Origin: Eledone cirrhosa
Lineage: Eukaryota
DNA: 64,000 bases
Reading direction: 5' to 3'
Assembly: GCA_964016885.1 (NCBI GenBank)
Contig: OZ024751.1
Coordinates: forward strand, 22,444,001-22,508,000
Shown: positions 4,836 to 60,620 of the stretch, piece by piece
How positions within the stretch are numbered: position 1 is the stretch's first letter
How the letters are laid out: every line of letters starts with the position of its first letter
Translations under genes and position numbers: made by a program
The notes under the pieces: model-generated
Told to the model about the DNA's origin: nothing
What the model saw: only the letters and a program-made list of their open reading frames with translations
Databases searched by the model: none

Positions 4836-4900
4836 TATTTTGTCTGATGAAGGCATACCATAATTTAATTTGGTATCCCTGAAATATGTATAATGAAATA
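4836..4900 (+). ncRNA. Minimal type I hammerhead ribozyme motif (family HH-A) in a (TA)n-flanked element of about 4801-4940
   Basis: Stem I tattttgt/atgaaata, core CTGATGA (4844-4850), stem II aggcatacca/tggtatccct, GAAA (4881), minimal stem III, AUA triplet ending at 4892; homologous to 56873-56938. Confidence 0.75.
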
Positions 4901-7251: not shown

Positions 7252-7459
7252 GATGATGATGATGTTGTTAATGATGGTGATGATGATAATGATGATGGTG
7301 ATGATGATGATGATGATGGTGATGATGATGGTGATGTTGTTAATGATGGTGATGTTGTTAATGATGATGGTGATGATGATGATGATGATGATGGTGATGA
7401 TGATGGTGATGTTGTTAATGATGGTGATGATGATAACGATGATGGTGATGATGATAATG

Positions 7460-42706: not shown

Positions 42707-42829
42707 GGAAAATGTTCAGGACCCCAAGCGGCGGGTCCTGAACATTTTCCTATTACCCACTCTACTACCCTAAGTATTGAGTACTCTGGTGCGTTATGGT
42801 CTACCTGGTTCCTTACCACACTTCCTTCG

Positions 42830-42898
<69 letters not shown>

Positions 42899-43004
42899 AA
42901 CGAGTAGGACCCCGACGGCTGTTCCTATTACCCACTCTACTACCCTAAGTATTGAGTACTTTGGTGCGTTATGGTCTACCTGGTTCCTTACCACACTTCC
43001 TTCG

Positions 43005-43005
<1 letters not shown>
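42704..43005 (+). mobile_element. Two tandem copies of the (TA)n-embedded hairpin element (family HP)
   Basis: 5' hairpin ggaaaatgttcaggaccc/gggtcctgaacattttcc plus body cctattacccactctactaccctaagtattgagtact...ccttcgt(TA)n. Confidence 0.85.
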
Positions 43006-43071
<66 letters not shown>

Positions 43072-54196: not shown

Positions 54197-55011
54197 ATAT
54201 ATACAGTTGATACGTATATGATGTTAAATCGTGTGGAATTTGTAGCTATAACTACGTTGACAGTTGAGACCATGTAAACTATGATAACATATCAAAAAGT
54301 TAATAATTCCACTGTCTTCAACATAACGCCATTCCTATTGATGTTGTTGTTGTTAGCTCAAGACACTTGGCAGACATTTTTGTTGTTGTTGGCTCAAGTC
54401 ACCAGCCAGAATGTTTGTGTTGTTGCTGTTGTTGTTGTTGTTGTTGTTGTTGTCACTTGCCAACAAGTACAACTCCGAGATTCTTACCTTTTGTTCACCC
54501 TTAAAATAACATAAAAGTACATGTATATATCACACACACACACAGACACACAGGCACATAGACACACACACACACACGCACACACTCACACACACACACA
54601 AAAGCACATACTGATATGGACAAATATGCATACACATGCACATACACATTCAGAATCAAACGTACACGTATAGACACTAACACAAGGTGATACAAGAAAA
54701 CACACGTACATACATAAATACATCAACATATACAAACATCACAGACATACACTAAACTAACCGCCATTGTCATAATAGACAGGCTTGTTTGACATTTCCT
54801 GTCTTCCATTGACATATTTTATTAAAGGCATAATTCGTACACACACACAAACTATATATATATATATATATATATTAGAAAGTGAGGTTTTTTTTACAAA
54901 ATGAAAAATAACCGAGGTGTCCTACACGAGTGGAAGTATAAAGAAAAAGGGATGAAATCGAAAATGCAACTGAAGTCTTATTTTTTTTTAAATATATATA
55001 TTTATTTGGTT

Positions 55012-55049
55012 CCTTTACCGGTTTCGCAGTTCTTCTGCTTTTCAAAAGG
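55012..55049 (-). ncRNA. Minimal type I hammerhead motif, U3-A8 variant (family HH-B), inverted copy
   Basis: Reverse complement of 55440-55477. Confidence 0.65.
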
Positions 55050-55439
55050 TGAGTTGAGATGGAGGGTCTGTGGTTTTTCTCACATCTGGTTGGTCTCTAA
55101 ATGTTACTTGTTTTATATGGAAAAACTGGCTCGAAAACCAGGTTTTTCGAGAAGTAATTTGATTGGTTTGTCAATAATTATAATAAATTTCGCGCCTGTT
55201 CGCGTTACAATAGTTCTTCAAATAATAGAGGGGGGGGGGGGGTTTGTCACAGGTTGTTTTTTCATATATGAGTGTTTGAATTTCTTTTTACTTGAAAAAA
55301 TGAGGCTCACGAAGGCTTTTTTTTTGGTTGGTTATAAATGAAATTTGGCTGTCACGTGAACTTGTTTTCCATATAAAACAAGTAACATTTAGAGACCAAC
55401 CAGATGTGAGAAAAACCACAGACCCTCCATCTCAACTCA

Positions 55440-55477
55440 CCTTTTGAAAAGCAGAAGAACTGCGAAACCGGTAAAGG
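55440..55477 (+). ncRNA. Minimal type I hammerhead motif, U3-A8 variant (family HH-B)
   Basis: cctt-TTGAAAA-gcag aagaa ctgc-GAA-accggt-A-aagg: stem I cctt/aagg, G-C-closed stem II, palindromic stem III, GUA triplet. Confidence 0.65.
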
Positions 55478-55573
55478 AACCAAATAAATATATATATTTA
55501 AAAAAAAATAAGACTTCAGTTGCATTTTCGATTTCATCCCTTTTTCTTTATATATATATATATATATATATAT

Positions 55574-56040
<467 letters not shown>

Positions 56041-56100: not shown

Positions 56101-56287
56101 GTATGACTCCGACGGCAGAGCTCAAGCCGTTTCGACGGCTATTTCTGGACAGTCCAGAAATAGCCGTGGAAACGGCTTGAGCTCTGCCGTCGGGGTCATA
56201 CCTTTTCCTATTTCCCACTCTACTACTCTAAGTATTGAGTACTCTGGTGCGTTATGGTCCACCTGGTTCCTTACCACATTTCCTTCG

Positions 56288-56288
<1 letters not shown>
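56101..56288 (+). mobile_element. Family HP hairpin element (about 50-bp arms)
   Basis: gtatgactccgacggcagagctcaagccgtttcgacggctatttctggac a gtccagaaatagccgtggaaacggcttgagctctgccgtcggggtcatac plus body. Confidence 0.88.
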
Positions 56289-56368
<80 letters not shown>

Positions 56369-56548: not shown

Positions 56549-56607
<59 letters not shown>

Positions 56608-56637
56608 ATATGGAAACTATATTTATAAAACCATATC

Positions 56638-56703
56638 TATTTCATTATATATATTTCAGGGATATCATATTAACAATATGCTATGCCTTCCTCAGACAAA
56701 ATA
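56638..56703 (-). ncRNA. Type I hammerhead motif (family HH-A), inverted copy
   Basis: Reverse complement of 56873-56938, here with an intact A-U pair closing stem II. Confidence 0.72.
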
Positions 56704-56872
56704 CAATATAAACAGTTTTATAGATAAATATATTCGACATACCTTAATAACACCGACTTGCATTTGGAGAGGTTCAAACAGGCAGTTTTAACCTCTGTTT
56801 TAACCTCTCCAAATGCAAGTCGGTGTTATTAAGGTATGTCGAATATATTTATCTATAAAACTGTTTATATTG

Positions 56873-56938
56873 TATTTTGTCTGAGGAAGGCATAGCATAT
56901 TGTTAATATGATATCCCCGAAATATATATAATGAAATA
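56873..56938 (+). ncRNA. Type I hammerhead motif (family HH-A)
   Basis: tattttgt-CTGAGGA-aggcatagcatatt gtt aatatgatatcccc-GAA-atatatat-A-atgaaata. Confidence 0.68.
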
Positions 56939-57134
56939 GATATGGTTTTATAAATATAGTTTCCATATATTGTAAATATACTCCAAATATTTGTCGAGTG
57001 CTTTTATATCAGTTATAAATATTTACTAGTTGTAACCCAACAATTTTAAATATAACTTTCCATATATATATATATATATATTTATGTCTGTGTGTATACA
57101 TATATATGTGTGTGTGTATATATATATGTCTGTG

Positions 57135-58239: not shown

Positions 58240-58356
58240 ACGTTCTTGAGTTCTGCCGTCGGGGTCATACTTTTTCCTATTTCCCACTCTACTACCCTAA
58301 GTATTGAGTACTCTGGTGCGTTATGGTCCATCTGGTTCCCTACCACAACTCCTTCG

Positions 58357-58357
<1 letters not shown>
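58240..58357 (+). mobile_element. Family HP element without the left hairpin arm
   Basis: ttgagttctgccgtcggggtcatac plus conserved body and (TA)n. Confidence 0.85.
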
Positions 58358-58436
<79 letters not shown>

Positions 58437-58545: not shown

Positions 58546-58729
58546 GATAAATCTACCAAAGGTTTACGGTAGTGTCCAATCCGTATGAAGAACTCAATGT
58601 AATCCGGATATCATGGAAAGAAGAGATCACTTTCGGTGAAAGATAAACGGAATACAGAGTCAAGATAAAATATTAAAAAATAATGAATAAAACAATGAAA
58701 CAGTTCCTTATATTAAACAAAAAAAGTTC

Positions 58730-58866
58730 ATTATTTAACGATCGTTTCTAGGACATATATGTGTTAGAATTGGCATGCATATTCAAAAGATCTATGTACA
58801 AAATTATACAAACTATCAAAGAGAATATACATACCAACACATATATATGCTGTCTTCAGAAATAAT
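58730..58866 (-). ncRNA. Hammerhead-like motif with extended stem II (family HH-C), inverted copy
   Basis: Reverse complement of 58888-59024. Confidence 0.55.
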
Positions 58867-58887
58867 CTTATTAATATTAATATTAAT

Positions 58888-59024
58888 ATTATTTCTGAAG
58901 ACAGCATATATATGTGTTGGTATGTATATTCTCTTTGATAGTTTGTATAATTTTGTACATAGATCTTTTGAATATGCATGCCAATTCTAACACATATATG
59001 TCCTAGAAACGATCGTTAAATAAT
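58888..59024 (+). ncRNA. Hammerhead-like motif with ~100-nt stem II (family HH-C)
   Basis: attattt-CTGAAGA-[long hairpin: atatatgtgtt/aacacatatat and ggtatgtatattc/gaatatgcatgcc]-GAA-acgatcgt-T-aaataat; the closing pair of stem II is a C.A mismatch. Confidence 0.55.
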
Positions 59025-59081
59025 GAACTTTTTTTGTTTAATATAAGGAACTGTTTCATTGTTTTATTCATTATTTTTTAA

Positions 59082-60462: not shown

Positions 60463-60616
60463 AGAAAAGAGACAGGACCCCGACGGCTGAGCTGCGGCCG
60501 TTTCGACAGCTAGATCCGAGTTGGGATCTAGCTGTCGAATCGGCCGGAGCTCAGCCGTCGGGGTCCTGACTCTTTTCCTATTATCGACTCTACAACCCTA
60601 AGTATCGAGTACTCTG

Positions 60617-60620
<4 letters not shown>
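60462..60620 (+). mobile_element. Family HP hairpin element, divergent subfamily
   Basis: caggaccccgacggctgagctgcggccgtttcgacagctagatcc gagttg ggatctagctgtcgaatcggccggagctcagccgtcggggtcctg plus body, between (TA)n tracts. Confidence 0.85.

Follow-up and report, generated by a model that had tools for sequence, protein, structure and literature searches.

A candidate pseudo-LTR hammerhead with a U3-A8 core, carried by an abundant Penelope-like element and probably doubled by a truncated, inverted insertion

Minimal hammerhead ribozymes have been described in the pseudo-LTRs (pLTRs) of Penelope-like elements (PLEs) by Cervera and de la Pena (2014, PMC4209133), who report about 1,300 hits with a U3-A8 core in Schistosoma, motif pairs on opposite strands at distances of 100-700 bp, no activity for monomers and low activity for dimers; their consensus places an additional base between 9 and 10.1, which some of the published rows lack, and the dimer model is restated in a review (PMC6765202). 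The U3-A8 covariation is natural and active in vitro according to Perreault et al. (2011, PMC3088659). Within PLEs, a CX2-5CxxC linker marks the Neptune and Nematis clades (Craig 2021, PMC8557442), and inverted, 5'-truncated copies with a one-sided tail belong to the standard anatomy as these sources present it (PMC8557442; PMC3846280), head-to-head inverted pLTRs being the usual form (Arkhipova et al. 2013, PMC3846280) and the tail reflecting two internal start sites of reverse transcription (PMC11167929). Whether PLE hammerheads need to cut is called unclear by Craig 2021 (PMC8557442), and the hammerhead was unnecessary for insertion in the in vitro assays of Frangieh 2024 (PMC11167929).

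Here we analyze a 64,000-nt stretch of Eledone cirrhosa DNA (the window), in which a 38-nt motif of this kind occurs twice. We assign a probability of roughly 0.7 to the reading that the motif is the U3-A8 pseudo-LTR hammerhead of an abundant PLE, doubled at this locus by a truncated, inverted insertion, and that in the parent element it would act as a slow, dimer-dependent and probably protein-assisted ribozyme, by a route other than the head-to-head pair.

Motif, predicted structure and parent element

The motif described in an initial annotation of the window is present exactly as reported there, once on each strand (Table 1), with identical letters in two copies that lie 391 nt apart. The plus copy reads UUGAAAA, followed by a gcag/cugc stem II with a 5-nt loop, GAA, ACCGGU and A17; stem I (ccuu/aagg) and stem II comprise 4 bp each, and the core departs from CUGANGA at positions 3 and 8, again as described. 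Inspection of the motif reveals the elements of a minimal hammerhead, namely a YUGANRA...GAAA core with a Watson-Crick 3-8 pair (UUGAAAA / GAAA), a short helix I, a helix II closed by G10.1-C11.1, and a helix III formed by the palindrome ACCGGU and followed by an NUH cut site (A). The extra unpaired base of the consensus between 9 and 10.1 is absent, A9 directly preceding G10.1 both in the family of the window motif (A) and in its sister families (B-D).

A strict scan for U3-A8 minimal hammerheads found one match on each strand of the window and none in any of 100 Markov-resampled windows, and an Rfam search of the window returned no hammerhead at gathering score or at E<=10, bearing out the expectation that standard scans would miss the motif. 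An Rfam match to MIR2646 in the window was rejected, as it reflects the long hairpin only. In predicted folds, closure of stem III within a monomer costs energy (+0.7 versus -4.7 kcal/mol) and the dimeric hammerhead reaches -18.9 kcal/mol, in agreement with the earlier proposals that stem III cannot close intramolecularly and that its palindrome suggests a dimer. The assignment of the motif to the minimal hammerheads of type I, with U3 paired to A8 and a stem III whose palindrome predicts a dimer, is supported.

Table 1. Coordinates of the hammerhead motifs, the surrounding insertion and the family B reference loci (window positions unless a locus is named)
Feature	Position	Strand	Detail
Minimal hammerhead motif, U3-A8	55440-55477	+	predicted cut 55473/55474
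Stem I of plus copy	55440-43/55474-77	+	
Core of plus copy	55444-50	+	
Stem II of plus copy	55451-63	+	
GAA of plus copy	55464-66	+	
Palindrome of plus copy	55467-72	+	
A17 of plus copy	55473	+	
Minimal hammerhead motif, U3-A8, second copy	55012-55049	-	U3 at 55045, A17 at 55016
5'-truncated sense copy of the family A 3' region/pseudo-LTR, ending in tail	54876-55364	-	98% to L031; about -322 to +175 from U3
PLE tail, about 60 nt, one arm only	54876-54936	-	from comparison with L031
Inverted, tail-less partial pseudo-LTR; right arm of the 188-bp repeat	55365-55552	+	about -79 to +108 from U3
(TA)n microsatellite, left insertion target	54854-54875		from sequence
(TA)n microsatellite, right insertion target	55549-55574		from sequence
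TATAAAA, candidate TATA box of a putative internal promoter	55372-55378	+	mirror copy 55111-55117 (-); from sequence
Predicted hairpin just upstream of hammerhead	55402-55432	+	5' foot coincides with pile-up of copy 5' ends
Family B reference loci	L068 (G000:C1:14220500-14230499), L048-L067		

When the 3.0-Gb assembly was searched with a motif query in which positions 3, 7 and 8 were left free, 6,288 matches were recovered, against none for the reversed control. In the full-length element L031 the motif lies at 2681 and again at 7370, flanking a 409-aa ORF1 and a 775-aa ORF with RVT_1 and GIY-YIG domains, such that one copy stands about 200 nt before ORF1 and the other after the RT gene. The larger ORF matches RVT_1 at residues 295-441 (28.7 bits, just below the 29.6 cut-off) and GIY-YIG at its C-terminus (682-772), and a C-x4-C-x2-C linker (CxxxxCxxC, conforming to CX2-5CxxC) precedes GIY-YIG in families A and C. 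The motif occupies the same pseudo-LTR location in RT/GIY-YIG elements at L031, L068, L199 and L200. This placement around the RT/GIY-YIG ORFs, together with the linker, identifies the element as Penelope-like (family A) and the motif as the hammerhead of its pseudo-LTR.

Partial-tandem and inverted pLTRs, a one-sided tail and microsatellite targets are all found in this family, which we would class as an EN+ PLE of Neptune/Nematis type. Its copies have a median identity of 96% (29 copies), and the family is young and very abundant.

Two further observations concern the coding region. ORF1 overlaps the RT ORF of L031 in the -1 frame, accompanied by a slippery heptamer, U UUU UUA (L031:4012-4018), that recurs at the same place in L068 and L200 (3/3 families). 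Of 39 related loci examined, 10 combine UUUUUUA or UUUUUUG with a long ORF upstream; a programmed -1 frameshift between the two ORFs is likely, and Fig. 1 of Craig 2021 (PMC8557442) shows animal PLEs with an optional, frameshifted ORF1. PLE RT/GIY-YIG genes, several of them with pseudo-LTR hammerheads, also appear in contigs or proteins labeled as bacterial MAGs or symbionts (L181-L197; P0012, P0038, P0042, P0058), and are most likely host DNA in the bins.

Selection on the fold and the evidence on cutting

Pattern searches gave 6,332 matches for family B and 3,681 (178 for the control) among which families C and D fall. The RT ORFs of A, B and C are 56-58% identical and group in one clade (SH-aLRT 100, in a quick tree of 43 rows with unnamed relatives). 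All four families keep U3, G12, A14 and ACCGGU, and A8 as well except in a few old D copies, with N7 and H17 varying; stem I measures 4 bp in the window copy, 3 bp in an ACUU subfamily and 2-3 bp in families B and C and in most copies of D. Across six aligned copies, 91% of stem cells pair, six of the eight pairs show double changes and G10.1-C11.1 is invariant, with 0 of 500 shuffles pairing as well and slid controls reaching at most 48%, in a comparison whose rows are related, whose structure is taken from the window copy and in which one stem I pair hinges on an alignment gap. That the sister families retain the U3-A8 pair and the ACCGGU palindrome and covary in their stems indicates that the hammerhead fold is under selection.

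Positions 3 and 8 themselves change as a pair. Among 25 motifs from related PLE loci (chosen from 97 such loci in other collections as plus-strand, GAAA-bearing and situated at the ends of or between RT matches; the rows are not independent), 21 are C3-G8, 4 are U3-A8 and none is mixed, which argues that the U3-A8 swap is compensatory, as initially proposed. Dropped from the set were hits that fell within an RT match, lay on the minus strand or lacked GAAA (L105, L123-1551, L124, L131, L132, L185-938 and the minus-strand hit of L186), along with repeat copies (L159, L191 and the second hits of L151 and L187); relaxed scanning gave L107 as one possible case of U3.G8. When relatives combining C3-G8 with a palindrome of this kind were sought, 14 matches were returned against 140 for the control, and no such family was detected. 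Conservation within family A, put forward earlier as a check, proved less telling: among the 6,288 matches, position 3 is changed in 17 and position 8 in 8, so that both rarely vary, but the free position 7 varies as rarely (13), and this conservation is therefore uninformative and was rejected as evidence of selection. None of the 17 copies altered at position 3 carries G8.

Changes at A13 cripple hammerheads. In family B, GCAA replaces GAAA (A13C) in 6,250 of the 6,332 matches, with U3-A8 otherwise intact, stem II and ACCGGU kept and the stems covarying; median pairwise identity is 98.4% (20 copies). A search of an open-access library yielded no paper on a hammerhead A13C; Lunse et al. may already list A13 variants. 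One genome holds three young sister families, with A13/A17, C13/A17 and A13/C17, and an older fourth; U3 is combined with A17 in families A and B.

This combination bears on folding, as A17 is the predicted partner of U3 in both the lowest-energy monomer and the lowest-energy dimer (probability 0.46 in the 5' context), an arrangement that by analogy would correspond to the inhibitory C3-G17 trap proposed for minimal hammerheads (PMC3884650). Stem I is predicted with a probability of about 0.1 in the fold of the whole pseudo-LTR, and once more flank is included, an AU palindrome downstream takes the place of ACCGGU in the predicted dimer. Examination of genomic copies shows that 8,758 of the 9,884 with A17 have an intact palindrome directly upstream; among the first 100 of these A17 copies none begins at the cut, and all 14 palindrome exceptions still carry hammerhead sequence upstream. 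A base other than A precedes the cut in 136 copies, 14 of 30 examined having no ribozyme, so that copies starting at the cut would amount to about 0.6% of all (14/30 scaled to 136, against 9,884), a figure without a matched control. The cut-spanning copies indicate that genomic copies come from uncut RNA. Given the predicted U3-A17 pairing, the 0/100 copies starting at the cut and the A13C fixed in a young family, catalysis is in doubt, and the weak stem I and the missing 9/10.1 base also count against it. In favor of cutting stand the conserved core, the covarying stems, the predicted dimer fold (-18.9 kcal/mol, against +0.7 for a monomer with stem III closed) and the in vitro activity of U3-A8 hammerheads (PMC3088659).

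The same observations favor an alternative in which the hammerhead of this PLE lineage is structural, serving RNA dimerization or as a site for RT binding or folding, with stems and palindrome kept to that end and no useful cutting. Family B, as young as any, has lost A13 yet kept stem II and ACCGGU; U3 faces A17 in two families; copies span the cut; and hammerhead mutants had no effect on insertion of a lizard PLE in the in vitro experiments of PMC11167929. However, between families with RTs more than 40% different the rest of the core is conserved, and so is the paired exchange at 3 and 8, a conservation that is hard to explain without a catalytic fold; uncut templates are compatible with cutting of another RNA pool, and A13C may represent an isolated loss confined to family B. 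We consider a mainly structural role unlikely, if a serious contender. Slightly more doubtful is its extension, in which the lineage would be a natural experiment, the fold having been selected after loss of catalysis and the hammerhead having been first an RNA dimerization or RT-loading element. A structural or dimerization role, if true, bears on what PLE hammerheads are for, and the three young families with their older fourth relative offer a direct test of whether cutting is needed; the fixed A13C of family B is the sole part that a specialist might test.

The inverted pair in the window and its origin

Both motif copies lie within one inverted repeat of 188 bp that is 100% identical between its arms (54937-55124 and 55365-55552, with a 240-nt spacer), and for this reason they represent one event, not two. 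We read the locus as a TA microsatellite that received a truncated, inverted insertion; the window copy, which has no ORF, is probably inert. Its layout, a tailed copy joined to an inverted tail-less one, is the commonest paired layout of the family: the tail/no-tail asymmetry (+175/+108) recurs in 17 of 20 other fetched close head-to-head pairs, and neighbors within 2 kb among the first 100 genomic hits were head-to-head in 25 cases, tail-to-tail in 1 and on the same strand in 0 of 99. A stop-free frame of 151 aa runs antisense to the pseudo-LTR (54886-55341, plus strand) and is open in other copies too; it has no Pfam hit and is probably incidental.

The 5' ends of copies fall at -37 to -45 in 15 of 30 cases, about 30 nt after TATAAAA and at the foot of the predicted hairpin, and at -34 to -44 in 6 of 20 copies of family B. 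We infer that this pile-up marks the transcript start, with window positions 55372-55432 as a candidate internal promoter; alternatively, it may reflect stalling of the RT at the predicted hairpin. Family B has CATAAAAA at the place homologous to TATAAAA, with similar 5' ends. A drop in depth near 55080-55113, in contigs of unrecorded kind, fits a pile-up of 5' ends and gives no copy number.

The model that we favor builds on the motif, its pseudo-LTR placement in RT/GIY-YIG elements, the covariation of stems between families, the asymmetry of the tails and the copies that span the cut. Transcription from a pseudo-LTR promoter would begin about 42 nt before the core, and the hammerhead would fall within the first 80 nt of the RNA. 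Reverse transcription of the uncut RNA would initiate internally, at either of two places (about +105 or +170 from U3); the product would be inserted into (TA)n, where a switch to the other DNA end would often add an inverted second arm. Where two hammerheads of the same sense meet, either within a 4.7-kb tandem transcript carrying both pseudo-LTRs or between separate RNAs, ACCGGU would join them and cleavage after GUA would proceed slowly, probably with help from the element's protein, as in the Anolis PLE (PMC11167929).

It is very improbable, by comparison, that the two head-to-head copies of the locus are themselves an active dimer and the 616-bp unit a self-contained self-cleaving module, if that is how the initial annotation meant the pair. 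The copies are identical and close together, and a candidate promoter in each arm could give outward transcripts that come together in trans. Their strands are opposite, however, and either read-through RNA holds a single sense hammerhead, for which folding predicts complete pairing with the antisense copy (hairpin of about -360 to -380 kcal/mol); because of the opposite strands and the burial of the sense copy, the pair cannot be a cis dimer. Spacing and junctions also differ between pairs and the tail sits on one arm, as expected for insertion by-products. A non-LTR retrozyme, a class that a 2026 preprint ties to pLTRs (10.64898/2026.07.22.740005), was rejected as well: a direct tandem array, which in retrozymes consists of short non-coding units each with a type I hammerhead, was sought at the locus and none was found, and the same-strand count within 2 kb is zero. 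The least tenable reading, which takes the unit for a MITE or foldback DNA element with a chance likeness to a hammerhead, draws on the perfect inverted repeat in a TA context and on a monomer that folds no better than shuffles (z -0.94), but is already refuted by a tail on one arm only (MITEs having a fixed length and symmetric terminal inverted repeats, against unequal arms here), a spacer of PLE 3' sequence, variable lengths and the presence of the motif around RT/GIY-YIG ORFs, chance likeness being further opposed by covarying stems and by null scans with 0 in 100.

The window holds other repeats as well. Positions 56596-56980 hold a second head-to-head inverted repeat (186 bp, TA context) with a hammerhead-like CUGAGGA...GAAA motif (C3-G8), probably another PLE family, which has a relative with CUGAUGA at 4840-4896. 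A further TA-targeting repeat, in inverted truncated copies, lies at 55578-55763, 56101-56292, 58245-58361, 42742-43009 and 60476-60620; in L047 the same repeat sequence is preceded by CUGAAGA and has GAAA within, which suggests a third PLE pseudo-LTR. A near-perfect palindrome of 204 bp at 58673-59081, ending in (TA)n with CTGAAGA near its center, is possibly one more inverted PLE stub.

Comparison with described Penelope-like elements

The closest described system, the Cercyon-type PLEs of Schistosoma mansoni (PMC4209133), shares with family A the type I minimal motif with U3-A8 (the S. mansoni(4) row reads UUGAAAA), the short helix I, the palindromic helix III, the pLTR location, and thousands of mostly truncated copies with opposite-strand pairs 100-700 bp apart. 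Compared with the motifs presented there, helix II has 4 bp rather than 7-8 and the 9/10.1 extra base is missing, whereas the 6-nt palindrome ACCGGU, a cut-site A able to pair with U3 and the high uniformity of copies are features of family A. Natural U3-A8 variants from a broad hammerhead survey (PMC3088659) show the same compensatory swap, active in vitro there; that survey does not tie the swap to PLEs, and A13C is absent from the variants it names.

Neptune/Nematis-type PLEs, as described in PMC8557442 and PMC3846280, match family A in the RT with C-terminal GIY-YIG, the CX2-5CxxC linker, the partial tandem and inverted pLTRs, the one-sided tail and the (TA)n targets, but differ in having tails of 30-40 nt, against about 60 nt here, where the 3' region is about 1.2 kb long and rich in microsatellites. 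Poseidon PAc of Anolis carolinensis (Frangieh et al. 2024, PMC11167929) likewise carries its pLTR hammerhead close to where the ORF begins, defines its tail by a pair of internal RT starts and inserts from an uncut RNA template. Its core is C3-G8 and its single ORF overlaps the ribozyme, in contrast to the U3-A8 core lying about 200 nt before ORF1 here, and the protein-assisted cleavage shown for PAc may extend to family A.

The novelty implied by the initial annotation does not hold, as the U3-A8 variant, the dimer model and the opposite-strand pairs were all published for PLE hammerheads in 2014 (PMC4209133). Every highlighted trait of the motif is already published for PLE hammerheads, and what remains useful is the comparative set of families.
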